From Candidatus Nomurabacteria bacterium (GTDB lineage Bacteria; Patescibacteriota; Minisyncoccia; Phycocordibacterales; UBA9973): a stretch of DNA of 64,000 nt. Of this stretch, positions 2,106 through 58,057 are shown piece by piece. Each line of letters opens with the position of its first letter. Position 1 is the stretch's first letter. Location: positions 51,141 through 115,140 of the forward strand of contig CALRHR010000001.1 of the NCBI GenBank assembly GCA_943359485.1, read 5' to 3'. The position numbers were made by a program, and so were the translations under genes. Below the pieces are notes generated by a model. It was not told the origin of the DNA. It searched no databases and saw only the letters and a list, made by a program, of their open reading frames with translations.

Positions 2106-2372
2106 ATGAACGAGAAGGAACTCGAAAAAGTTTTAAAAGCGCTTGCTAATAAGCGCCGGGTTGCGATTTTAAAATTTCTCAAGCATACCAAGCAGGCATC
2201 GGTGGGGGAAATCGCAGACGCTATAAAATTGTCTTTCAAAGCAACATCAAAACATCTAATGATTCTTTCAAATACAGATATAGTTGAAAAAGAGCAGAGT
2301 AGTCTCACGATGCTTTATTTTGTACCCAAGACCAATCATCCAATAGTTTCTAAATTATTATCCATTATCTAA
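2106..2372 (+). CDS. ArsR/SmtB-family winged-helix transcriptional regulator
   Basis: LKALANKRRVAILKFL...ASVGEIADAIKLSFKATSKHLMIL is the typical ArsR HTH. TATAAT at 2094-2099 lies 6 nt before the ATG at 2106. Confidence 0.8.
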   Translation: MNEKELEKVLKALANKRRVAILKFLKHTKQASVGEIADAIKLSFKATSKHLMILSNTDIVEKEQSSLTMLYFVPKTNHPIVSKLLSII

Positions 2373-2402
2373 TCTCTAATTCGCACGAATAGGCGAATAG
2401 TT
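2372..2402. promoter_or_regulatory. putative ArsR operator, copy 2
   Basis: ATCTCTAATTCGCACGAATAGGCGAATAGTT is a direct repeat of 2034-2064. It lies immediately upstream of the ATG at 2408. Confidence 0.5.
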
Positions 2403-2407
2403 TAAAT

Positions 2408-3049
2408 ATGCAGGATTTTACTAAAAAAGAAAAAGCTTTATTAAAGAAATTGGATACTCCAGCGAAGGTGCAGGATTTTTTAAATGGAATTCCTTTTAAT
2501 TTTGAAAAAAGGGGAGAGACATTAAAATCCCCATTAATGGTTTTACGAACAAAAAGCGCGCATTGTTTCGAGGGGGCGCTTTTGGGCGCATATATTTTAT
2601 CTCTTCATGGTTTCACTCCATATGTTTTGCATTTAAAAAGTATCAAAGATGACTACGATCATATCATAACGCCATTTAAGATTGAGGGATTGTGGGGCGC
2701 GCTTTCTAAAACCAATCATGCGGTCTTGCGTTATCGCGAGCCAATCTATAAAAATATTCGTGAGCTCGCGATCTCGTATTTTCATGAATATTTTTTAAAT
2801 GATGGAAAGAAAACTTTGAGACAGTACTCCCAACCTTTAAATTTAAATACTTTAAATAAACCCACCCGACCGAACGGTCGTCCGGGCGGGAATTGGGTAA
2901 CTAGTGAAAAAGATTTGTGGTATATAGATAAAAAATTAGATAAAATAAAACACTATGACATCATACCTAAAGCGCACATAAAAAATCTGCGCAAAGCAGA
3001 CAAAATTGAAATCAAGGCAGGGAAGGTGGTAGAATACAAGAAGCCATAA
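2408..3049 (+). CDS. hypothetical protein (possible transglutaminase-like Cys-His-Asp fold)
   Basis: A 213-aa ORF. The segment SAHCFEGALLGAYIL...DYDHIITPF resembles a Cys/His/Asp catalytic arrangement, but the functional call is weak. Confidence 0.4.
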   Translation: MQDFTKKEKALLKKLDTPAKVQDFLNGIPFNFEKRGETLKSPLMVLRTKSAHCFEGALLGAYILSLHGFTPYVLHLKSIKDDYDHIITPFKIEGLWGALSKTNHAVLRYREPIYKNIRELAISYFHEYFLNDGKKTLRQYSQPLNLNTLNKPTRPNGRPGGNWVTSEKDLWYIDKKLDKIKHYDIIPKAHIKNLRKADKIEIKAGKVVEYKKP

Positions 3050-3081
3050 ATTCTTGAGGGCTACAAAAATGAGATGTAATC

Positions 3082-3113
3082 CTTACTTCACTAACGGCCG
3101 TCAGTGTGGTAAG
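3082..3113. promoter_or_regulatory. palindromic hairpin/operator overlapping the -10 of the PaaX-like gene
   Basis: CTTACTTCACTAACGGCCGTCAGTGTGGTAAG is centred on ACGGCCGT. It overlaps TAAGAT (3110-3115), which lies 6 nt before the ATG at 3122. Confidence 0.55.
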
Positions 3114-8273: not shown

Positions 8274-8741
8274 ATGTTTAGAAAAAACAAACAAGAGAGG
8301 ATTATGGTCTTTGGAACTTTCGATGGATTACACCCAGGACACCTTAATTTTTTCAAACAAGCGAGAAAATTATCCAAAACTCCCTTTTTGATCGTTTCGG
8401 TGGCGCGTGACCGCAATGTTTTTCGGATAAAAAAACAATTTCCAATTCTTCCCGAGAAGAACAGAGTAATTTTAGTTGAAAAATTAATTAAAAAAAATTT
8501 AGTAAACAAAGTTATACTCTCCGGAATAAAAAACCATATTCCGCATATTATAAAAGAGCGCCCTGATATAATTGCGCTTGGTTATGACCAAAAAGCTTAT
8601 ACTAAAAATCTTCAAAAAGATTTGAAAAATAAAGGCATCTTGATAAAAATAGTTCGTTTGAAGTCCTACAAAGAAAAAATCTACAAAAATAGTTTGCTCC
8701 GACCACTTCGCCCGAAAATAATCACCACCCCCTTCGCCTGA
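8274..8741 (+). CDS. cytidylyltransferase-like nucleotidyltransferase (FAD synthetase / FMN adenylyltransferase-like)
   Basis: FGTFDGLHPGHLNFF is the (H/T)xGH nucleotidyltransferase motif. TGgTAAAAT (8262-8267) lies 6 nt before the ATG. Confidence 0.6.
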   Translation: MFRKNKQERIMVFGTFDGLHPGHLNFFKQARKLSKTPFLIVSVARDRNVFRIKKQFPILPEKNRVILVEKLIKKNLVNKVILSGIKNHIPHIIKERPDIIALGYDQKAYTKNLQKDLKNKGILIKIVRLKSYKEKIYKNSLLRPLRPKIITTPFA

Positions 8742-8775
8742 AGCGAAGCGCCCCTCCTTTAAAAGGAGGGGAGGG
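8720..8775. repeat. GC-rich CCCCTCC/GGAGGGG hairpin element
   Basis: AATCACCACCCC...GCCCCTCCTTTAAAAGGAGGGGAGGG overlaps the 3' end of the 8274-8741 ORF. It is homologous to 56305-56344 inside the island leader. Confidence 0.6.
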
Positions 8776-21878: not shown

Positions 21879-21907
21879 TTGACTTCCATCTATGCTTGGC
21901 ATATACT
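21879..21907 (+). promoter_or_regulatory. sigma70-type promoter of the rRNA leader (TTGACT-N17-TATACT)
   Basis: TTGACT lies at 21879-21884 and TATACT at 21902-21907, with a 17-nt spacer. Confidence 0.6.
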
Positions 21908-21971: not shown

Positions 21972-21985
21972 TACTCTTTGACAAA
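21972..21985 (+). promoter_or_regulatory. boxA-like antitermination element
   Basis: TACTCTTTGACAAA resembles the rrn boxA consensus TGCTCTTTAACAA. It lies in the leader upstream of the 16S gene. Confidence 0.5.
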
Positions 21986-22037
21986 AGAATAGGTTTTTTA
22001 GAACAGGTGCAAGTCTGTTCTGTTTTTTTGAGTAAAT

Positions 22038-22103: not shown

Positions 22104-22267
22104 GTAAAGTATAAATAATTTTTAGAGCAAAGATTGAACTCTAACGAATCCAACAAAAATAATACGAATCGTAACATCCAAGGGTCGACGATGCAAAGCA
22201 TCGGAGATACTGAGGAGCGAAGCGACGAATGTACTGTTTTTTGTTTTGTTTCGTTCTAATTAACTTT

Positions 22268-23910
<1,643 letters not shown>

Positions 23911-24138
23911 TTGAAAACTATCCCGGTCCTCTTCGGAGGGCTGAGTGTCAGACCCGTTCTGACCGGATTTATTGAGTCGGTATTGTGTCGCTCAATTGAC
24001 GACACAATAGTTTTTGCTCAAACTTAAAATGAGCTAGACTATATGGAAAGACATATAAAATAAAAAAGTTTCAGCCTTCGGGCTGATCCGCCTCTGGCGG
24101 AAAAAAGGAACGAAACAAAACAAAGGACAGTAACAAAA

Positions 24139-24168
24139 AACACCACATGGAAACATGTGGTGTTTTTT
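24139..24168 (+). terminator. rho-independent terminator after the 16S unit
   Basis: The hairpin ACACCACATG-GAAA-CATGTGGTGT is followed by TTTTTT. Confidence 0.7.
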
Positions 24169-24185
24169 GTTATAATAAAATTATC

Positions 24186-49654: not shown

Positions 49655-50050
49655 ATGAAAAATATAAAAAAAATTCTCATAAATATCACGGCATTCCTGA
49701 TTGTATTTATGTTGCTTGTTACACCAGTATTGTCTTTTGCGTATAATATCAGGGATCCGATAGTGCCACCTTGTCCGGCGACTGGGTGTGGGTGGAATGA
49801 ATTTTTAATGCTTATAAACAATGTAATTTATTTTATTCTGTATGGTTTGGCTATGCCTATTGCTGCCATTATGTTTGCGTATGCCGGAGTTCTTCTCGTC
49901 CAAGCGCAAGGTGGGGAAGCCAAAACTAAAGCCAAAGAAATTTTCCTGAACGCTGTGTACGGCCTGGCCATAGCCGCCGCTGCCTGGCTGATAGTCAAAA
50001 CCTTACTCGCTGTGTTGGGTTACAAAGATGCCGCTTGGATTGGATTTTAG
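49655..50050 (+). CDS. T4SS-pilin-like (TrbC/VirB2-like) small membrane protein 1
   Basis: It has a signal peptide plus two TM helices. These flank the loop LLVQAQGGEAKTKAKEIFLNAVYGLAIAAAAW. Confidence 0.6.
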   Translation: MKNIKKILINITAFLIVFMLLVTPVLSFAYNIRDPIVPPCPATGCGWNEFLMLINNVIYFILYGLAMPIAAIMFAYAGVLLVQAQGGEAKTKAKEIFLNAVYGLAIAAAAWLIVKTLLAVLGYKDAAWIGF

Positions 50051-50074
50051 TGTGTGTATGTTATAATAAAAGCA

Positions 50075-50482
50075 ATGAAATTTATTAAGAAAAATTTTTA
50101 TATCATAGTACTGCTGACTTTTTTGGTTGTTATGCCTATCCTTTCTTTTGCGCAAGCTACGCCTGGCGGGAACCCTATAAGTACACCTGGTGGAAATGCC
50201 GGATGTGACCCCTCGAAGAAAATCTGCAATCCGATAAAAACCGACACCTTAAATGGCTTTATCAGGGCTATCCTTGAAGGCGTCTTCAAGATCGGCTTGC
50301 CTATTTTAGCGTTGGCATTTGTTTTTGTTGGTTTTCTGTTTGTGCAGGCCAGGGGTAATTCGGAAGAATTGACCAAGGCCAAAGATGCTCTGTTGTATAC
50401 TTTAATCGGTGCAGCGGTGATCCTCGGGTCGTGGGCTATCGCACAGCTTATCACTGAAACAGTGACCGCATTAAAACCGTAA
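50075..50482 (+). CDS. T4SS-pilin-like small membrane protein 2
   Basis: It has a signal peptide ending SFAQA and the loop FVQARGNSEELTKAKDALLYTLIGAAVILG. TATAAT lies 7 nt before the ATG at 50075. Confidence 0.6.
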   Translation: MKFIKKNFYIIVLLTFLVVMPILSFAQATPGGNPISTPGGNAGCDPSKKICNPIKTDTLNGFIRAILEGVFKIGLPILALAFVFVGFLFVQARGNSEELTKAKDALLYTLIGAAVILGSWAIAQLITETVTALKP

Positions 50483-50517
50483 GGTATGGTTGATTATTAA
50501 TAAAAATAAAAATAAAT

Positions 50518-50820
50518 ATGATGTGTAATCAAGAAGGTTTAATTGAAATGGTGTGTAGGTTGGGTGATCTTTTCAGTATTGTTGTTCCGGTATTAGTGGG
50601 CTTGGGAGTTGTTTACTTTGTCTGGGGTGTCGTTCAATATGTTATTGCTGATGATGTAGAGGCAAAGTCGAAGGGCAAAGACAGGATAATCTTTGGCATT
50701 ATCGGTTTGGCTGTGATTGTTAGTTTGTGGGGGTTAGTGTTCATTCTTACGGATACTTTTTTTGGTGTAGATGCAGGCATGGAAGGTGCCCCTGATTTTC
50801 AAGGTCTACTTCCTGAATAA
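50518..50820 (+). CDS. T4SS-pilin-like paralogue 3 (no obvious signal peptide)
   Basis: YFVWGVVQYVIADDVEAKSKGKDRIIFGIIGLAVIVSLWGLV. Confidence 0.5.
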   Translation: MMCNQEGLIEMVCRLGDLFSIVVPVLVGLGVVYFVWGVVQYVIADDVEAKSKGKDRIIFGIIGLAVIVSLWGLVFILTDTFFGVDAGMEGAPDFQGLLPE

Positions 50821-50825
50821 AAAAT

Positions 50826-51563
50826 ATGAAAAAATACGCACAAAAAATAGTAAAATTTATTCCAATACTTTTTATTTTAACCTTTGTTCCATTTTTAGTT
50901 TTTGCCCAACCCATACCCCCTTCTGCGCCTTCCGGTTTGGCTGCTGTAATAAATAAAATCAGTGCTTTGCTTAGCTCACTTCTCCCCGTACTTATTTCCC
51001 TAGGAGTACTCTATTTTATTTGGGGAGTTATTATTTATTTTATTGCTGACGATGCAGAGGCAAAGTCGAAGGGCAAAGACAGGATAATCTACGGCATTAT
51101 CGGCCTTGCTGTCATTGTCAGTGTTTGGGGACTGGTTGCCATCTTAAATCAAACTCTTGGTTTGAGTGGGAACTCTGGTTTATCTGGCGTGAGTGCTCCT
51201 TCTAGTATTTCAAATTTGGCACCCTCTTCCAATGTATTACCTTCATGTTCATATATGATAAGTAATAAACCAAAGCTGGCGAATTATCTGGAGTACTTTA
51301 CTTGTATAATTGCTCAATCAGTCATCCCACTTATCTTTGCCATAGCTGTCGTGACCTTTATCTGGGGTGCGGTAAAGTTCTTTATCATCAATGCGGAAGA
51401 GGAAGCCAAAAGAGATCAGGGCAAGCAGTTCATGCTCTGGGGTATTATTGCCCTCGCGGTGATGATCAGTGTTTGGGGTTTGGTCAAAATTCTGGGAGAG
51501 ACCGTGAATATAGATACAAACTATCTGCCTTCAGTTCAGCCGTACAGTTCATCCCGGCCGTAG
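50826..51563 (+). CDS. T4SS-pilin-like paralogue 4, tandem double-domain
   Basis: It has a signal peptide and two copies of the two-helix module (…ADDAEAKSKGKDRIIYGIIGLAV… and …NAEEEAKRDQGKQFMLWGIIALAV…). Confidence 0.55.
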   Translation: MKKYAQKIVKFIPILFILTFVPFLVFAQPIPPSAPSGLAAVINKISALLSSLLPVLISLGVLYFIWGVIIYFIADDAEAKSKGKDRIIYGIIGLAVIVSVWGLVAILNQTLGLSGNSGLSGVSAPSSISNLAPSSNVLPSCSYMISNKPKLANYLEYFTCIIAQSVIPLIFAIAVVTFIWGAVKFFIINAEEEAKRDQGKQFMLWGIIALAVMISVWGLVKILGETVNIDTNYLPSVQPYSSSRP

Positions 51564-51628
51564 CCCTTGCTTTTATTATTAGTATGTTTGTGTTAGAATT
51601 AACAGGTCGTTTATTAATTAAGTCAGGT

Positions 51629-51699
51629 ACTAGGTGTTAGGCGCTAGGCATTAGCATAAAATCAAGCTAAAGCTTAAAGTCTAAATTCCTAAAGCCTAA
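51629..51699. repeat. TAGGC-heptad palindromic element
   Basis: ACTAGGTGTTAGGCGCTAGGCATTAGC-ATAAAATCAA-GCTAAAGCTTAAAGTCTAAATTCCTAAAGCCTAA. Confidence 0.55.
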
Positions 51700-51703
51700 A
51701 AAA

Positions 51704-52090
51704 ATGAAAAATAAATTAATGGTTTTGTCGGGTTTTGTTATGGGTTTGGTTCCGGTCGTGGCGTTAGCGCAGAATACTGGTGGTACTCCTACTGTGTGTA
51801 CTGCGGGTCCTGTGACAACCTTTCAGGGTGCCTTGTGTAAAATTGGGGAGATTATGAATGCAATCATTCCGATTTTGATAACACTGGGTGTACTGTACTT
51901 TGTCTGGGGAGTTATTTCGTATGTTATTGCTGATGATGAAGAGGCAAAGTCAAAGGGACGAGACAGGATAATCTACGGTATTATCGGCTTGGCTGTTATC
52001 ATTTCTGTTTGGGGATTGGTGAAGATTTTGTCAAATACTTTTGGGCTTACAAATGTACAGCAAATTACTTTTCCGACTGTTTCTTACTAA
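51704..52090 (+). CDS. T4SS-pilin-like paralogue 5
   Basis: It has a signal peptide ending VALAQN and YFVWGVISYVIADDEEAKSKGRDRIIYGIIGLAVIISVWGLV. Confidence 0.55.
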   Translation: MKNKLMVLSGFVMGLVPVVALAQNTGGTPTVCTAGPVTTFQGALCKIGEIMNAIIPILITLGVLYFVWGVISYVIADDEEAKSKGRDRIIYGIIGLAVIISVWGLVKILSNTFGLTNVQQITFPTVSY

Positions 52091-52140
52091 TCTATAAAGT
52101 GTCGCACCAAGAATCGTGCGACATGATTTCGTAAAATCAC

Positions 52141-52488
52141 ATGAATTTATTTCTCGGTCTTTTCTCTGCCAGGGTGGCTTATGCGAGCGTTGATACCTTT
52201 ATGAATAGCGTAGGCGAGCTTATCATAAATCCGCTCATCAATTTTCTTTTTGCTCTAGCGGTGGTGTATTTTCTGTATGGCGTGTTTGAATTTCTGTCCA
52301 ATCAGGAAAATGAAGACAAGAGAACAGCCGGCAAGAGCCACATGCTTTGGGGAATTGTCGGCATCACCATCATGATGGGTGTGTGGATCATCTTTGGTCT
52401 TATTCTGGACACTTTTAACTTAAGAGGTGACATAGATGTCAGTTCAGGAGGGGTTATAAATGTGAAGTTGCCACCATACAATCCTTAA
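52141..52488 (+). CDS. T4SS-pilin-like paralogue 6 (divergent)
   Basis: VVYFLYGVFEFLSNQENEDKRTAGKSHMLWGIVGITIMMGVW. Confidence 0.5.
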   Translation: MNLFLGLFSARVAYASVDTFMNSVGELIINPLINFLFALAVVYFLYGVFEFLSNQENEDKRTAGKSHMLWGIVGITIMMGVWIIFGLILDTFNLRGDIDVSSGGVINVKLPPYNP

Positions 52489-52624
52489 TAGAGAATTCAT
52501 CTCAAGAGAATAAATTCAAATTAGAGACATAAAAAGGGCGACTTCGCAAAAGCGAAGTCGCCCTTTTAGGTTCTGGAGTCAGTTTACTTTGCACAGCATA
52601 GATCTTTTGTGGTATACTGCAACT

Positions 52625-52855
52625 ATGAAAAATATCATTCAATTTTCAATCGAAAAAGGGCAGGATGGGTATTACATTGCTACAGCAAATGATTTTGCTA
52701 TTATTACCCAAGCGAAAAATTTAGAAGATTTGTTTGTAAATATTAAAGAAGCCACCGAGCTTCACTTTGAAGAAATTTTAGAAGAAGAAACATCTCTGAG
52801 CCGCAATCCTTCAATTTTTATAAACTACGAAATGCCTATCGCGCTCTATGCCTAA
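52625..52855 (+). CDS. hicB: HicB-like antitoxin
   Basis: MKNIIQFSIEKGQDGYYIATANDF...DLFVNIKEATELHFE is UPF0150/HicB-like. TATACT (52613-52618) lies 6 nt before the ATG. Confidence 0.65.
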   Translation: MKNIIQFSIEKGQDGYYIATANDFAIITQAKNLEDLFVNIKEATELHFEEILEEETSLSRNPSIFINYEMPIALYA

Positions 52856-53090
52856 ATTAAAGCGACTTTCTGGCAAAGAAGTCATAACTTTTTGTGAACA
52901 ACACAATTTTAGTATCAGTAGACAGAAAGGAAGCCATATTAATTTGGTACGAATTGTTTCAGAGAAAAAACAAGTGGTGACCGTGCCAAATCATAAAGAA
53001 ATAGACAGAGGAACATTGCATAATATTTTCAAGAAACTGTCTTCATTCATTCCTGAAGAAGATTTAAGAAAATTTTTCTTTACTGACTAG
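52848..53090 (+). CDS. hicA: HicA mRNA-interferase toxin
   Basis: KLKRLSGKEVITFCEQHNFSISRQKGSHINL is the YcfA/HicA signature. It overlaps hicB by 8 nt. Confidence 0.75.
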   Translation: MPKLKRLSGKEVITFCEQHNFSISRQKGSHINLVRIVSEKKQVVTVPNHKEIDRGTLHNIFKKLSSFIPEEDLRKFFFTD

Positions 53091-53098
53091 GTAAAATC

Positions 53099-53140
53099 AA
53101 AAAGGCGGTCGTTCATCGCTGAACGGGTCCGCCTTTTGTT
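53099..53140. terminator. bidirectional terminator at the left edge of the GC-rich island
   Basis: AAAAGGCGG-(CGTTCA-GCGA-TGAACG)-CCGCCTTTT has T-runs on both strands. Confidence 0.65.
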
Positions 53141-53248
53141 TTGCGCGTGGGGCTCGCACGCGCGATGTTTTCATGAGCCCTCCTTTCTCCGAAGTTGATC
53201 TGCTTCGGGCAGAGACCTTCTTTGCGCTGGTCAGGCGCTCCGAGAGAA

Positions 53249-54253
53249 TTACTCCCGGATGTATACACCTGTGGCTGGGGTTGCCCCCTCGCCACAGAAC
53301 TTCCAGATCCCCGCCATCCCGATGGACGGCGGGGGGGTGGTGCCGAAGGTCTCTGTATGAGATCCTCCGTCCGGGTCAAACACCTTCATGGAGCCCCGAT
53401 CGGGACCCCACTGGCTGTTGATCCGTAGGTTCCGTTCGTAACAGCCATCTGTTCCGAACGGGTAGAGGGTGGGTGTCGGCCCTACCTTCGCGGGCGCCGG
53501 GGCTGTCGAGGCCACCGGCGTGGATGTCCGGCTACCTGCCGGTGAGGGGGGTGCGGGAGGTAACAATCCCCCAAAAAATCCACCCACTGTCTCCCGGATC
53601 TCGGTCCCGACCCGTTGGGCTACTTTGTCGCCGACTACAGCCTTTTTTGCTGTGTCGATAGCCACTGGGCCGATGCCGCGCCCCTCGGATGCCGCCTGAT
53701 CTGCTTCCTCCCACTTCGTCGTGGGGGCGGGAATCGCGGGGACCGTCATTGGCGTCGCCGACTTCGGCCGAGCCATCTCGGCCGATCGTGGCATTTCCCT
53801 TGCCACGAAAAGGGAAATCAACACTATTCCGAAGATGGTGAGCGCTGGCTTCACTCGGCCGTGTGCCGTCATTGCGGCGATCACGACCGAACAAAAAAAC
53901 AGCGCTACCCAAATTAAGATATCCGTACTGGCTGTTGGGTATAGCCATGGGCGTGGTCCCGTGGTGAGAAAGTAGCTGAAGGCGAAGTTATTGCTAACTC
54001 CGACAACAGTAGTTCCCACCATCATGACGAATGTAAGCGTAGAGAACCCGACGATGAATTTCTTCATTCCATCGGAAATTCCGCCGCCGTGTGCCGCCGC
54101 GGGTCGCGAGAGGCCGCCCCAGCCTTGGTGCTGGGCCAGCTTGTAAAGGCCGTACAGCACTCCGCCGACGATAGCGACGGTCCAGGGGTTCCAGCCGAAT
54201 GAGCTCGACACCCAATACACTCCCAGGGCCGCGATTGCAAATTTCCAAAACAT
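53249..54253 (-). CDS. GC-rich polytopic membrane protein A1 (unknown function; Pro-rich linker plus small Cys-containing C-terminal domain)
   Basis: A 334-aa ORF with an ATG preceded by AAGGAAG. Third codon positions are G/C-rich. There are about 5 hydrophobic helices, then PAIPAPTT...PPAPPSPAGSRTSTPVASTAPAPAKVGPTP. Confidence 0.65.
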   Translation of the reverse strand: MFWKFAIAALGVYWVSSSFGWNPWTVAIVGGVLYGLYKLAQHQGWGGLSRPAAAHGGGISDGMKKFIVGFSTLTFVMMVGTTVVGVSNNFAFSYFLTTGPRPWLYPTASTDILIWVALFFCSVVIAAMTAHGRVKPALTIFGIVLISLFVAREMPRSAEMARPKSATPMTVPAIPAPTTKWEEADQAASEGRGIGPVAIDTAKKAVVGDKVAQRVGTEIRETVGGFFGGLLPPAPPSPAGSRTSTPVASTAPAPAKVGPTPTLYPFGTDGCYERNLRINSQWGPDRGSMKVFDPDGGSHTETFGTTPPPSIGMAGIWKFCGEGATPATGVYIRE

Positions 54254-54545
54254 TTCATTTCTTCCTTAACTCCGTCCCCTTGACTGGGCAACATGGAGTT
54301 GGAGCAGACTGATCAGAGTACTACAACCGCTTGCGCGTTTGTCTTACTTTGAATAGTCTGCCCGCTAGGAAGCCGGATTTTTTCTCTCCTCTCCTTACCC
54401 CCTCCGCTTTCAGCACCTCCCCCTAAATAGGGGGAGGCCGGGTAGGGGTACAAAGGGGTGAGGGTTCAGCTACATGGCGGGCAAACCATTCATTTTGCTC
54501 GAAATTCTACTTACTTCTTATTTAATTTTCGAAGGTCAGCTTTAC
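54254..54545 (-). promoter_or_regulatory. ~290-nt structured 5' leader of cassette 1
   Basis: A 13-bp long-range stem (54351-54363 with 54479-54491) encloses a GC-rich variable domain. A GCAA-tetraloop hairpin lies at 54328-54337. Confidence 0.55.
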
Positions 54546-54551
54546 CTATGT

Positions 54552-54580
54552 ATTGTATCACACTTATGACAAAAAGTCAA
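54552..54580 (-). promoter_or_regulatory. promoter of cassette 1 (TTGACT-N17-TACAAT on minus strand)
   Basis: The -35 lies at 54575-54580 and the -10 at 54552-54557. The sequence is identical to cassette 2. Confidence 0.7.
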
Positions 54581-54626
54581 GCCCTTTGGGCTGAATTTGT
54601 CCTTATTTTGTAAGGTTAAAATGATA

Positions 54627-54658
54627 AAAGGGCCGCCTCAGTGAAGAGACAGCCCTTT
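54627..54658 (-). terminator. terminator of cassette 2
   Basis: On the minus strand, AAAGGGCTG...CGGCCCTTT is followed by TATCATTTT. Confidence 0.55.
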
Positions 54659-54783
54659 GTTTTGCGCTGGGCCTGTGCGCGATTTGGGCCCTGGGTTGAC
54701 GAGTCCCCGTTGCGTCACTCTGGTTTGTTCCCTCCAGACGGGAGACCTCTATTTTGTAAGCGCTGGTCAGGTGCTTTGTCTTT

Positions 54784-55281
54784 TTAGGGGCAGTACCGGC
54801 TTGCCCCCTCTTCGAGGGGGTTGAACGGCCGTTTCTTCCCGTCCTCCCCGACGATCTCGTCGGGGCAGCCGAATTTCTTGTGTTTGGGGGTCCCTACCCC
54901 CAGAATTTTGTCGACGGCCTGGTCGAGCGCTTGCCCGACAGAGACCGCCGACTTGCCGTCGCCGAGTCCAAGACTCCCGAGGACCTTGTTGATCCCCTCG
55001 AGGGCCGCGTTCCCGGCGGTCTTTCCGATCTCAAGCGCGCGCCGATTGCGCAGCGCGCGGGCCTTGGCTAGAATCGTCGGAGTGCTGTCCTCCGGATGCG
55101 CCTCGAGCCAGGCCAGCGTCTTGCTGGCCCCGTCATAGAGCGCCTTCGCTCCCTCGATTGTTGTAGCGGCTGGAGCCTTCTCCAGAGCCGCCACTTTCTG
55201 CGCCATTTTTTCTTGTCGGCTGGCGCCACAACCGACCGCCGTGAGTGCCACGGCGAGCACGAACGTCAAGAGGAAATTCAT
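54784..55281 (-). CDS. GC-rich putative lipoprotein B2 (helical, unknown function)
   Basis: The signal peptide MNFLLTFVLAVALTAVGC is lipobox-like. GGAGGGGGAGGGAAGAA lies immediately upstream. The start overlaps the upstream stop as ATGA. Confidence 0.65.
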   Translation of the reverse strand: MNFLLTFVLAVALTAVGCGASRQEKMAQKVAALEKAPAATTIEGAKALYDGASKTLAWLEAHPEDSTPTILAKARALRNRRALEIGKTAGNAALEGINKVLGSLGLGDGKSAVSVGQALDQAVDKILGVGTPKHKKFGCPDEIVGEDGKKRPFNPLEEGASRYCP

Positions 55282-56153
55282 TTCTTCCCTCCCCCTCCAA
55301 ACATTCCCTTGACTATCCACTCCAGGGGCTGGGTGACTACCTCACCCAGGGAGTGTTTGGCGGCCAACTCCCCAATGCCGCCAATCTTCCATTTCCTAAT
55401 ACCCCCGAGGACCTCGTCCCAACGGGAGCAGACGATGGCTCCGACGAGCGCTATCATCTGCCACCCGAGAACTCCCCACCCCATAGCCTTCTCCCCGAAG
55501 AGAAACGAGTTAATGGTTGCCCAAAAACCGAATTCCCCCAGGGGATCCTCGAGCGGAGTCGTTGCCACAGCCCAGAACTGGGCTTTGGCGATTTCGATGG
55601 GGTTTAGGGTTGCTGGCGCCGCGGTAGGGTCCACCCACCACAAAAACACCACCCCTAACACCATCCACACCGTCGTGCGAAGTACCCAGTTGTTGTCGCC
55701 GAGCCGGATCAGGACACTCCGCCCGATCTCCGCAGCCCCACGGCCGTGAGTCTCGATTCCCGCGAAGATGGCGAAGACCGCGAGCGTGGTCACGAGGGCA
55801 ACTAGCGTAAAGGCTGGGTAGCCGAACCAAAAACCGAAGACGATCCAGTAGAGTACTATGAACAGCGCCCCCCAGAATCCCACGGTCTTCGGCTTGATCA
55901 CTACCTCGCCTTCGTCGCAAGCGCCATCGCCTACGACTTCGGCCCTAATGATGTGTCGTCCCGGTTTGAGGTCTTTGAGCTCGAAGCTCGCGACCCCGCC
56001 TTCCGTCTTTACGGCGCGCTTGCGCTTGCCGTCGACCGAGAAACGAACCTGGACTTCTTTCTCGCCACCTTTTTTCCCGGCGGTGGCCGGCCGGTCTGAC
56101 ACGACGGCTTCCGCCACCGTGTCTTTCTCTACTAAACTCAAAGTCAAAATCAT
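55278..56153 (-). CDS. GC-rich membrane protein A2 (N-terminal beta-rich soluble domain plus multiple TM helices)
   Basis: The start is chosen at MILTLS, with TAGGAG 7 nt upstream. The hydrophobic core is FWGALFIVLYWIVFGFWFGYPAFTLVALVTTLAVFAIFAGI. Confidence 0.6.
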   Translation of the reverse strand: MILTLSLVEKDTVAEAVVSDRPATAGKKGGEKEVQVRFSVDGKRKRAVKTEGGVASFELKDLKPGRHIIRAEVVGDGACDEGEVVIKPKTVGFWGALFIVLYWIVFGFWFGYPAFTLVALVTTLAVFAIFAGIETHGRGAAEIGRSVLIRLGDNNWVLRTTVWMVLGVVFLWWVDPTAAPATLNPIEIAKAQFWAVATTPLEDPLGEFGFWATINSFLFGEKAMGWGVLGWQMIALVGAIVCSRWDEVLGGIRKWKIGGIGELAAKHSLGEVVTQPLEWIVKGMFGGGGKK

Positions 56154-56462
56154 TATCTTTCTCCTAATCAAATTTTTTCTCGAGCACACGATTCAGAATA
56201 CTACAACCACTTGCGTGTTTGTCGTTTCCTGAATAGTCTGCCCATCAATGAGCCGATGCATTTCCTCTCCCTGCGAAGGGGGAGATTTGAGAGGGGGTCT
56301 CAAGAATTACCACCCCTAGCCCCTCCTTAATCAAGGAGGGGAGGAAACATAAAATACTCAGCTTCTTAACGGGCAAACCATTCATTTCCCCGCCAGTCTG
56401 GCCGGGGTAAATTGCTCGAAATTCTACTTACTTCTTATTTAATTTTCGAGTAACAGCTTTAC
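56154..56462 (-). promoter_or_regulatory. ~310-nt structured 5' leader of cassette 2
   Basis: It has the same architecture as 54254-54545. The stem joins 56231-56243 with 56371-56383, and the GCAA hairpin lies at 56208-56217. There is an extra 24-nt hairpin insert. Confidence 0.55.
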
Positions 56463-56468
56463 CTATGT

Positions 56469-56497
56469 ATTGTATCACACTTATGACAAAAAGTCAA
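56469..56497 (-). promoter_or_regulatory. promoter of cassette 2 (TTGACT-N17-TACAAT on minus strand)
   Basis: The -35 lies at 56492-56497 and the -10 at 56469-56474. Confidence 0.7.
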
Positions 56498-56626
56498 GCC
56501 TAAATGCTCCAAAACAGCCTTATTTTACAGGCTATTTTGGGGCATTATTGACATTAGTCTTGTATTGTGTTTTTAAAAAAGTCTATAGTTCTTGTCTTAA
56601 TCTAATTCAAATGATATTATATAAAT

Positions 56627-56857
56627 ATGAACACCGTAACCTTACCCAAAAATCAATACATGCAAATTTTAAGCACTCAAGACAAATTTCAAGTGGATTT
56701 GTCTCGCTTGGAGAGAATGGTTTCTTATATGGTTCAAGATGAAGTTAGTCCGGTGTATATGACCAGACTTTCTAAGATAGAGAAAGGTCTTTCCGCTGGC
56801 AAAGGTGTTAAGTTTAAAAATAAAAGTGAACTCAAAAAATTCTTTCGTTCTTTATAG
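56627..56857 (+). CDS. putative antitoxin (partner of the RelE/ParE-like toxin)
   Basis: A 76-aa ORF lying 2 nt upstream of the toxin gene. TATTAT (56615-56620) lies 6 nt before the ATG. Confidence 0.5.
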   Translation: MNTVTLPKNQYMQILSTQDKFQVDLSRLERMVSYMVQDEVSPVYMTRLSKIEKGLSAGKGVKFKNKSELKKFFRSL

Positions 56858-56859
56858 TT

Positions 56860-57144
56860 ATGAATAATTTAGAGAAGATGAATTTTATTTTTTCTCTGGA
56901 ATTTAAAAAAATTCTAGAGAAAATGGCAAAGAAAGATAAATTAGGATTAAAAAAAATAGAAGACCAAGTATATAAAATAATCTCTAATCCACTCATAGGT
57001 AAACCTCTTCGTAATGTTATGAAAAGTTATCGACGAGTTCATATAGGGCATTTTGTTTTGATTTATAAAATAGAGAACGGAGAGATAACATTTGCAGATT
57101 ATGACCATCATGATCGCATTTATAAAAAATATTCTCTAACCTAA
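56860..57144 (+). CDS. RelE/ParE-family toxin
   Basis: YRRVHIGHFVLIYKIENGEITFADYDHHDRIY. Confidence 0.65.
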   Translation: MNNLEKMNFIFSLEFKKILEKMAKKDKLGLKKIEDQVYKIISNPLIGKPLRNVMKSYRRVHIGHFVLIYKIENGEITFADYDHHDRIYKKYSLT

Positions 57145-57145
57145 T

Positions 57146-58057
57146 ATGCTACTTTCTGCCATCATCACAATAATCGGCCTCTCGCTCTTTGAAGCAGTTT
57201 CTTCGGTTGACAATGCCATCATCAATGCGGAAGTTCTCTCGACCATGGGGGCCAAGGCACGGCGCTGGTTTTTGACTTGGGGGATGTTCATTGCGGTCTT
57301 TCTAGTTCGCGGGCTTTTACCTTTTGCAATAATCTGGGCTTTTAATACATCTCTCTCACCACTCCAAGTTTTATCTGCGGCCTGGTCTTCAGATCCGCTC
57401 GTTTTGGCGTCCATAGAAAAGTCCGCGCCGATACTCCTCGTCGCCGGGGGAGTTTTCTTGTTATTTTTATTTTTGCATTGGCTTTTCTTGGAAGAAAAAC
57501 ATTTGGGTTTGCCTATGGCAGAGAAATTCTTTATGAAGAATGGGGTTTGGTTTTATGCCACTGTATCAGTCCTTCTTTCAATTATCGCTTGGTTTGCATT
57601 AAAGGAGAGCAACCTGATGGGCTTTGGTGCTGTTGTTGGTTCCAGTTTATTTTTTATTACGCATGGTTTCAAGCAAAATGCCGAGGAGCAAGAAAAAAAA
57701 CTGCTCGGGTCGGCACACTCTGATCTCTCCAAGCTTTTTTTCTTGGAAATAATTGATACTACATTTTCTATCGATGGTGTGCTCGGCGCTTTTGCTTTTA
57801 CTCTTTCGGTGCCACTCATTCTGCTTGGCAATGGTTTCGGAGCGCTCTTGGTGCGGGAGCTGACGATTCGCAATATCGAACGAATAAAAAAATATGTTTA
57901 TTTAAAAAATGGGGCGATGTATTCCATTCTGGTTTTGGGGATGATTATGATACTGCACAGCTTTGGGTTTCACATACCGGAATACGCTTCGCCACTTTCT
58001 ACTTTTATCATTATTGGATTCTTTTTTTGGAAGTCGCGAAAATCGTTGCAGGTGTAG
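57146..58057 (+). CDS. DUF475 / TerC-like integral membrane protein
   Basis: LFEAVSSVDNAIINAEVL is followed by multiple TM helices. Confidence 0.6.
   Translation: MLLSAIITIIGLSLFEAVSSVDNAIINAEVLSTMGAKARRWFLTWGMFIAVFLVRGLLPFAIIWAFNTSLSPLQVLSAAWSSDPLVLASIEKSAPILLVAGGVFLLFLFLHWLFLEEKHLGLPMAEKFFMKNGVWFYATVSVLLSIIAWFALKESNLMGFGAVVGSSLFFITHGFKQNAEEQEKKLLGSAHSDLSKLFFLEIIDTTFSIDGVLGAFAFTLSVPLILLGNGFGALLVRELTIRNIERIKKYVYLKNGAMYSILVLGMIMILHSFGFHIPEYASPLSTFIIIGFFFWKSRKSLQV

Follow-up and report, generated by a model that had tools for sequence, protein, structure and literature searches.

What kind of element is the long, structured 5' leader that stands before each of two gene cassettes in a 64,000-nucleotide stretch of Candidatus Nomurabacteria bacterium DNA (contig CALRHR010000001.1; this whole stretch is called the window below)? 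An initial annotation, made from the sequence alone, had proposed that the two leaders (54254-54545 before cassette 1, 56154-56462 before cassette 2) share one architecture and may be a riboswitch-like or protein-binding RNA. We find that the leader is a previously undescribed motif that is real, narrowly distributed, and structurally simple. We hold with moderate confidence that it contributes a cis-acting RNA hairpin to the 5' untranslated region (5' UTR) of a conserved operon in a small clade of the candidate phyla radiation (CPR), and that this hairpin works through RNA processing or stability or through protein binding.

All leader, promoter, and cassette coordinates in the window refer to the minus strand. 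Both leaders lie behind a near-consensus sigma-70-type promoter that consists of TTGACT, a 17-nt spacer, and TACAAT with a TG extension. This promoter was read at 56469-56497 for cassette 2, and the same promoter, with TG before the -10 hexamer, lies at 54552-54580 for cassette 1; its motif, GGCTTGACTTTT...TGnTAtAaT, is kept in relatives. The transcription starts predicted from these promoters, near 54545 and near 56462, fit those proposed initially, and the features described for both leaders are found where they had been placed. The 13-bp long-range stem GAATGGTTTGCCC/GGGCAGACTATTC includes two G.U pairs; precisely as described, it brackets 115 nt in the first cassette and 127 nt in the second. 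Minimum-free-energy folds calculated with RNAfold keep this stem in both leaders and lengthen it to about 16 bp, and both leaders are far more stable than their dinucleotide shuffles, none of which was as stable (z = -4.6 and -5.5). In a pairwise alignment the two leaders are identical from the -35 hexamer through an AT-rich hairpin except for a 4-nt patch and an insertion of 25 nt, show no likeness inside the long stem, and become similar again in a 3' module. The 25-nt insertion contains a GC hairpin, CCCCGGCCAGACTGGCGGGG, which both alignment and folding place in cassette 2 only (56388-56407); the initial annotation had already noted this insert.

We searched for homologous leaders by BLAST and by direct reading on contigs fetched through two protein families (L001 to L023). 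Besides the two window copies, 12 copies of related hairpins are present on metagenomic Patescibacteria contigs, amounting to 8 distinct hairpins. Homologous leaders lie in L001 (two copies), L002, L003, L006, L008, L010/L015 (two copies), L018, L021/L022, and, in part, L023. The known distribution comprises about a dozen metagenomic contigs and one Patescibacteria metagenome-assembled genome (MAG); the relatives are from groundwater, at Hainich and similar sites, and from sediment. These leaders precede homologues of two different genes in constant orientation, running from promoter through leader to ribosome-binding site, and they have in common the promoter, a 5' box predicted to be single-stranded, and the long-range stem. 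The initial annotation had made its case depend on further homologues, and these exist on independent contigs. The architecture it proposed survives the comparison in part: the long stem is conserved, the GC-rich domain that the stem encloses is not, the AT-rich hairpin is confined to the window, and the module with a GNRA hairpin is confined to a subclade. That the leader matches no known family is borne out by Rfam 15, in which no family overlaps either leader at gathering thresholds, nor does any match at E-values up to 10 across 53000-57200. The best Rfam match near the leaders is ftsZ-DE, in a 3' UTR, whose 26.8 bits fall well short of the threshold of 72.2. The evidence for the leader is of the same kind as that for motifs of the CMfinder type in Rfam, namely conservation upstream of homologous genes together with covariation, whereas this leader is not in Rfam 15 and is narrowly distributed.

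In the relatives, the long-range stem is a hairpin of 26 to 27 bp, GAAYRGTTTGCCCRYYAAGnAGCYRA, loop, TYGGCTCTTTRSYGGGCRAACTRTTC, and its helix is nearly continuous, with one or two mismatch positions overall and 1 to 3 mismatches in every copy. The minimal hairpin, in L021 (169-223), measures 55 nt. In the window, the corresponding hairpin of cassette 1 spans 54351-54491 (arms 54491-54466 and 54375-54351, with a 90-nt GC-rich apical insert at 54465-54376), and that of cassette 2 spans 56231-56383 (arms 56383-56358 and 56255-56231, with a 102-nt GC-rich apical insert at 56357-56256). We aligned the 10 distinct copies with the apical region swapped for GAAA and counted 26 pairs (alignment A6). 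Standard pairs occupy 90.8% of the cells of this alignment, compared with 26 to 45% when the 3' partners are slid by 1 to 3 columns, and eight pairs carry changes on both sides. Compensatory examples include GAATGG/CTATTC, GAGCAG/CTGCTC, and GATCAG/CTGATC, TTTGCC/GGCAAA and TTCGCC/GGCGAA, and AGCCAA/TTGGCT and AGCTAA/TTAGCT. The covariation score of 0.308 exceeds the 0.214 of shuffles and was reached by none of 500 shuffles, with shared ancestry left in. All of the hairpin folds are stable (z = -6.3 to -8.5). A covariance model built from five short-loop relatives only (R1) finds each relative's hairpin except that of L003, which carries a 393-nt insert, and the cut copy in L023; in the 64-kb window it matches copy 2 (36.3 bits, E = 5e-7) and nothing else. 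The covariation in homologues to which the initial annotation had looked is therefore present, as compensatory changes both in the long stem and, within the subclade, in the GNRA hairpin described below. As sequence evidence, we regard the covariation of the long hairpin as good rather than overwhelming support for a selected structure.

Is the hairpin selected as RNA, or could the conserved element be DNA? The two strands differ in how well they pair: of the 260 cells, 236 hold standard pairs in the sense strand and 214 in the antisense strand, and the sense-strand fold is the more stable in 6 of 7 hairpins. Wobble cells in A6 comprise 29 G.U, in 11 columns, against 7 A.C, in 5, and this excess of G.U over A.C favors the transcribed strand. 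These observations, together with the compensatory changes, argue against a reading that we consider quite improbable, in which the leader carries a DNA-level element such as a repeat of the type of a miniature inverted-repeat transposable element (MITE), an operator of inverted half-sites, or a single-stranded DNA hairpin acting in conjugation (as a promoter, in priming, or like an attC site). Such an element would account for the long imperfect inverted repeat with its variable centre, for its place beside type IV secretion pilin genes, for palindromes like the apical inserts elsewhere in the window and in L006, and for the DDE (rve) transposase gene beside one L001 copy. The repeat is nevertheless confined to these leaders, where its orientation and its place between promoter and ribosome-binding site stay constant. 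The 64-kb window contains just two copies, the 23 short contigs L001 to L023 have none at unrelated sites, and the flanks show no target-site duplication. Because its half-sites lie 4 to 393 bp apart, a dimeric operator is incompatible with it. Relaxase, VirB4, and integron integrase are absent within about 10 kb, and plasmids and phages gave no match: a sensitive blastn search of the cassette 2 leader (word size 11) against both returned nothing. In viral contigs, the 57 matches to a pattern for the 5' arm were all unrelated coding sequence, none of the 3 matches to a pattern for the 3' arm was upheld by the covariance model, and a protein-based search found no matches.

Specific candidates of this kind (attC site, MITE, and operator) were rejected. 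Hairpins of attC sites and MITEs resemble the leader hairpin as imperfect inverted repeats with conserved mismatches, a highly variable centre, and a strand-specific fold. They differ in that the element here lies at the 5' end of the genes, behind a promoter, and that attC cores, an integrase, dispersal, and target-site duplication are all missing. A MITE is disfavored since the copies occur in homologous leaders only and lack a target-site duplication (64 kb and 23 contigs). An integron attC site is disfavored since the cores RYYYAAC/GTTRRRY are absent (the arms read GTTTGCC and GGCRAAC), the element sits between promoter and ribosome-binding site, and no integrase is nearby.

The region enclosed by the hairpin bears on whether the leader senses a ligand. 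By copy, this region measures 4, 5, 6, 7, 14, 47, 52, 76, 90, 102, or 393 nt, and the enclosed sequences are unrelated while the arms are conserved. A domain that ranges from 4 to 393 nt in unrelated sequence implies that there is no aptamer-like core, and the GC-rich enclosed domain, which the initial annotation had counted as part of the shared architecture, cannot be upheld as a functional part since one relative has a 4-nt loop in its place. A riboswitch or other ligand-sensing RNA would suit a long structured leader before membrane-protein genes, matched by no known family and folding strongly in both window copies; we nonetheless judge it extremely unlikely. The GC-rich domain is the only one capable of forming a pocket, and it is absent or unrelated in relatives. 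The part that stays conserved is a single helix, in which few conserved nucleotides are unpaired, rather than a multi-helix aptamer, and there is no conserved terminator or platform for sequestering the Shine-Dalgarno sequence, the 3' segments differing between lineages. Of the two roles first suggested, that of a riboswitch is made unlikely by the single helix without a pocket, while a protein-binding RNA remains plausible.

Because the enclosed region varies in both length and sequence, the CCCTCC/GGAGGG apical hairpins of the window are passengers, that is, insertions of C-tract/G-tract palindromes. The largest insert, in L003 (486-877; partial in L023, 1-30), holds an AT-rich, helix-rich open reading frame (ORF) of 107 aa inside the apical loop. 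This ORF has a TTGCGT-17-TACAAT promoter of its own and is almost leaderless, and the hairpin arms, 393 nt apart, are still conserved. We also observed similar palindromes (CCCCTCC...GGAGGGG) outside the leaders, at about 8720-8775 in the window, at 368-420 and 1050-1100 in L006, and at about 3600-3662 in L003. GC-rich palindromes of this sort occupy other intergenic spots in either orientation, often with CCTCACCCC nearby, which suggests that they are a loose family of insertable hairpins.

The second element shared by the relatives is the 5' box, CTGTYMYTTGAAAAT, which lies about 10 to 25 nt into the predicted transcript. In the window it reads CTGACCTTCGAAAATTAA in cassette 1 (54522-54539) and CTGTTACTCGAAAATTAA in cassette 2 (56439-56456). 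A weight matrix built from the relatives only ranks the cassette 2 box first and the cassette 1 box third among all positions of the 64-kb window. RNAalifold, applied to the 5' segment of 11 leaders, finds neither a consensus pairing nor an alternative pairing there. The AT-rich hairpin seen in folds of this segment, CTTCGAAA...TTTCGAG in cassette 1 (54498-54534) and CTCGAAAATT...GAATTTCGAG in cassette 2 (56415-56450), has no counterpart in the 9 other leaders. It had been proposed as a shared part of the architecture; since the 5' segments of the 11 leaders have no consensus structure, it is instead a local feature of this genome.

In the model that we propose to accommodate these observations, the 5' leader is modular and precedes an operon for a membrane protein of 291 aa, a lipoprotein-like protein of 165 aa, and a membrane protein of 334 aa. 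Its obligatory modules are the sigma-70 promoter and the box CTGTYMYTTGAAAAT, presumably single-stranded. The main structured module is the 26- to 27-bp hairpin, whose apical loop takes anything from 4 nt up to a 393-nt gene-bearing insert, and small tetraloop hairpins before the Shine-Dalgarno sequence are lineage-specific modules, with GNRA loops in the window subclade and UGCG loops in others. As double-stranded RNA, the hairpin would act in cis on its mRNA and would not sense a ligand. A helix of two and a half turns would most simply be an RNase III-type cleavage site, a 5' stabilizer, or a platform for protein binding, and in concert with a promoter and a Shine-Dalgarno sequence that are both strong, it would set the expression level of abundant envelope proteins. 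We infer that the leader is transcribed from the predicted promoter and functions at the RNA level. That it is a cis RNA element and not a sensor is suggested by its composition, a single helix and a box, with no junction, pocket, terminator, or alternative that sequesters the Shine-Dalgarno sequence.

Among these roles, processing or stability would be the most likely. At 26 to 27 bp, the helix is long enough for an RNase III substrate, which calls for some 20 bp or more of almost unbroken double-stranded RNA. Long 5'-UTR stem-loops serve as RNase III sites or 5' stabilizers in the rnc and pnp leaders of E. coli, the ompA 5' UTR, and the leaders of S-layer mRNAs. Like these, the leader described here has a long hairpin of at least 20 bp with a strong promoter on one side and a strong Shine-Dalgarno sequence on the other, precedes envelope-protein genes, and would act in cis with no need for a ligand pocket. 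It differs in having no sequence kinship with them, in an unusually conserved stem, in the companion box, predicted to be single-stranded, and in an apical loop that tolerates insertions; cleavage or stabilization is here a proposed role.

Several observations weigh against a processing or stability element. With no more than 10 distinct sequences, all of them related, covariation counts stay modest, and the shuffles ignore kinship. Window copy 1, which has a 90-nt insert and a more divergent upper stem, is missed by model R1 even with filters off, a run in which copies with long inserts are lost; it still pairs in A6. In the window, unlike in the relatives, the AT-rich hairpin partly buries the 5' box, which makes up its 5' half. 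In L018 (240-371) and L006 (1140-1267), the leader before the operon's first gene keeps the promoter, YTTTGAYAA, and small GC hairpins while the long hairpin is missing. The long hairpin is therefore dispensable for expression, an optional module, and the leader is modular. Finally, the stem sequence is kept more strongly than pairing requires, which a DNA-level site would fit equally well.

This surplus conservation also bears on a narrower reading, which we hold to be doubtful, that a regulatory RNA-binding protein recognizes the hairpin by its sequence, making it a translational or stability operator, with upstream single-stranded A-rich GAAAAT repeats as auxiliary sites. GTTTGCC, AAGnAGC, and GCTCTTT are nearly invariant, and mismatch positions are conserved as well, the column pair 25/43 being unpaired in 9 of 10 sequences. 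In L006 the small hairpins are absent; the mere 6 nt there between the end of the long hairpin and the Shine-Dalgarno sequence also speak for this reading. Across leaders, however, the distance between hairpin and Shine-Dalgarno sequence varies from 6 to about 110 nt, and the locus offers no candidate binder: its products are membrane or lipoprotein-like, and its neighbors are pilins and toxin-antitoxin pairs.

The conservation of the box raises a further possibility, which we think unlikely, that the leader is a module like those of rRNA operons or lambda nut sites. A boxA-type box would load NusB/NusE and other Nus factors onto RNA polymerase, and the complex would hold the 5' arm until the 3' arm emerges, in the manner of the rRNA leader-trailer helix, resulting in processive antitermination and in assisted formation of a long-range helix over the variable cargo. 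The box is promoter-proximal, conserved, and, going by the consensus prediction for 11 leaders, single-stranded, and YTTTGAYAA is kept even in the leaders that have lost the long hairpin. The boxA consensus of E. coli is GYTCTTTAANA (PMC5725501). The boxes of relatives agree with it at 7 to 8 of the 10 specified positions, those reading GTCCTTTGAAA, GTTATTTGAAA, and GCACTTTGAAA at 8. The window copies agree at 6 of 10, the poorest matches of the family, and the leaders differ among themselves at C4 and T6, both critical for boxA in E. coli. The Gram-positive rRNA boxA, for which literature searches gave nothing usable, would, if it reads UGUUCUUUGAAAAC, be one position off the L003 box. Outside rRNA operons, boxA works at suhB (PMC5725501) and in CRISPR arrays (PMC7665894), and PMC3177189 describes a double-stranded RNA site on NusB-NusE beside the boxA site.

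The criterion for resemblance to boxA is the rRNA-leader boxA of the same organism (PMC7665894), and the window contains one rRNA locus. Its 16S gene has its own promoter (21879-21907), a boxA-like sequence, ACTCTTTGACAAAAG (21974-21988), and a terminator (24140-24170), and no 23S gene follows it within the window. A leader-trailer helix of about 28 bp encloses the 16S gene (22232-22256 pairs with 24107-24132, -36.8 kcal/mol), and the succession of box and helix in our leaders parallels this layout. The boxes of relatives share TTTGAAAACTA with the sequence directly 3' of the 16S gene (23913-23923). In spite of this, the box matrix gives poor scores to the candidates that flank the organism's own rRNA: 4.5 bits for ACTCTTTGACAAAAG in the rRNA leader and 7.3 bits for the post-16S site TTTGAAAACTA, neither of them near the top of the window. 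Also at odds with Nus loading are the sequestration of the window box in the AT-rich hairpin and the shortness of the operon, about 2.4 kb. Like an rRNA leader or lambda nut site, then, the leader places a presumably single-stranded U-rich/A-rich box close to the promoter, followed by a helix able to enclose long cargo. It departs from them in a box that matches boxA at 6 to 8 of 10 positions and its own rRNA-leader candidate weakly, in a hairpin far longer than boxB, in the lack of an N-like protein, and in serving protein-coding genes in a short operon. Combining processing with Nus factors, one could picture an rRNA-style module reused for protein-coding genes, in which a Nus complex on the boxA-type box closes a processing helix that harbors cargo, an idea to which we assign a low probability. 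The cargo would then be the GC-rich palindromes or, as in L003, a whole gene with its own promoter.

Attenuation and translation of a leader peptide were tried as candidates and rejected. No U-tract follows the hairpin, the 3'-flanking sequence being A-rich or mixed, and a terminator scan reports none at the hairpins; with the U-tract missing, the hairpin is not an intrinsic terminator or attenuator. A mini-ORF over the 5' arm (M-x-x-L-P-x-K-stop) lacks a Shine-Dalgarno sequence, and its start is missing in L003; that its stop codon falls at the variable n of AAGnAGC was also counted against it.

Downstream of the long hairpin, the leaders diverge by lineage. In the window, the 3' module (GACAAAC, a GNRA hairpin, GGTTGTAGTA, and TCTGA) comprises the hairpin ACAAACGC-GCAA-GCGGTTGT (54342-54323) followed by AGTACTCTGA in cassette 1 (54313-54342), and the hairpin ACAAACAC-GCAA-GTGGTTGT (56222-56203) followed by AGTATTCTGA in cassette 2 (56193-56222). 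The change from CGC-GCAA-GCG to CAC-GCAA-GTG that the initial annotation described is present. Outside the window, the module was found only in L003 and L023, and a scan of the genome collection with the initially described pattern gave 0 matches. Within this subclade, the base of the GNRA hairpin, ACAA/UUGU, is constant, whereas the upper stem reads CGC/GCG, CAC/GUG, or GGGAA/UUCUU, with loops GCAA, GCAA, and GAAA, respectively. These changes support the predicted GNRA hairpin for the subclade; the module initially taken to be conserved does covary but is limited to the window, L003, and L023. In the same place, other relatives have different small hairpins, GCUCCGAC-nnnn-GUCGGAGC and GCGCC-UGCG-GGCGC. 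In the window, the leaders contain the Shine-Dalgarno sequences AAGGAAG of the 334-aa gene (53249-54253; Shine-Dalgarno and ATG at 54251-54266) and AGGAG of the 291-aa gene (55278-56153; 56151-56165).

Why does the operon carry the leader twice? In L003, L009, L012, L013, L014, and L017, the lipoprotein gene and the 334-aa gene are separated by about 55 nt that contain no leader. In the window, L001, L002, L006, L010/L015, and L018, a block consisting of a 3'-UTR module, a terminator, a promoter, and a leader is interposed. The conserved 3'-UTR module, roughly GGCCTGAAATCGCGCGCCTGGCCAGCGCGCAAAACAAAGGGC, lies with an intrinsic terminator at the end of cassette 2 (54618-54700, minus strand) and is also present in L002 (196-282), L006 (2606-2692), L010 (1712-1798), and L018 (1818-1902). 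Since the same module and terminator also end the 334-aa gene at the close of cassette 1 (53092-53175, minus strand), the second leader is an internal, optional duplicate of the sequences that end and begin the operon, and it splits the operon in some genomes only. Two copies within one locus tend to be homogenized, as in the window and L010. Separately, we observed that a strong Shine-Dalgarno sequence with an ATG often stands before the 3'-UTR module and opens a basic mini-ORF of 17 to 27 codons, in a frame that differs between loci. In L001 only, a DDE (rve) transposase gene (2155-3102) lies between the lipoprotein-like gene and the second leader copy. Directly 5' of the cassette 2 promoter, a hairpin, CCCCAAAATAGCCTGTAAAATAAGGCTGTTTTGGAG (56500-56549, minus strand), is weakly similar to the upper portion of the leader hairpin (15.7 bits with model R1, E about 0.01) and may be no more than a terminator for the gene upstream.

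The operon behind the leaders is itself conserved. The 334-aa product has 11 homologues, at 46 to 65% identity, and the 291-aa product has 6; the gene for the 165-aa lipoprotein-like protein (54784-55281, minus strand) follows the 291-aa gene. Relatives, one of them the Patescibacteria MAG, have the same gene order as the window, with genes of the 291-aa type, for a lipoprotein-like protein of roughly 160 aa, and of the 334-aa type converging on T4SS_pilin genes (PF18895/TrbC). In the window, six VirB2-like T4SS_pilin (PF18895) genes (49655-52488, plus strand) converge on the cassettes, a HicB/HicA pair (52589-53090, plus strand) stands between the pilin array and the cassettes, and a ParE-type toxin pair (56627-57144, plus strand) lies upstream of them. 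No VirB4, coupling protein, or relaxase was found among the ORFs scanned, from about 41 kb to 59.7 kb. Patescibacteria are known for arrays of 2 to 11 VirB2-like pilin genes, which have been reported to be essential in one cultured Saccharibacterium (PMC12102498).

We compared GC content across the window locus (53249-56153, minus strand), L001, L002, L003, L006, L010, L015, and L018. At every locus, the three operon genes have 52 to 62% GC overall and 62 to 77% at third codon positions, compared with 30 to 44% and 26 to 48%, respectively, in neighboring pilin and housekeeping genes. Because this excess persists across proteins that are 46 to 65% identical, the genes form a conserved, compositionally odd operon rather than a recent insertion or transfer. 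The label "island" given to the cassettes initially is thus misleading: in all relatives checked, equally GC-rich genes lie beside the pilin genes. Profiles from Pfam, NCBIfam, and PDB sequences gave nothing significant for the three operon proteins. In the 334-aa family, a conserved N-terminal membrane part of several helices is followed by a Pro/Ala-rich linker and then a sequence-variable C-terminal beta domain. An AlphaFold2 model of this family (mean pLDDT 60, pTM 0.28) fell short of the quality needed to search for related folds. Its one confident part was the C-terminal beta domain (residues 260-334, pLDDT about 85), which, as modeled, would fit an exposed, fast-evolving surface domain.

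As a narrow and structurally simple element, the leader is of modest general significance unless a Nus-factor or processing mechanism is confirmed. If the rRNA-style module were true, its tie to an operon held GC-rich at synonymous sites within AT-rich genomes would point to a dedicated regime of mRNA stability and expression for pilin-locus envelope proteins. The leader also marks an unannotated three-gene operon whose GC content at synonymous sites (62-77%) is held far above that of its surroundings in diverged relatives. Most Patescibacteria have not been cultured, and little is known of how they regulate their genes; for these organisms the leader provides a concrete cis-element before envelope genes near pilin arrays.

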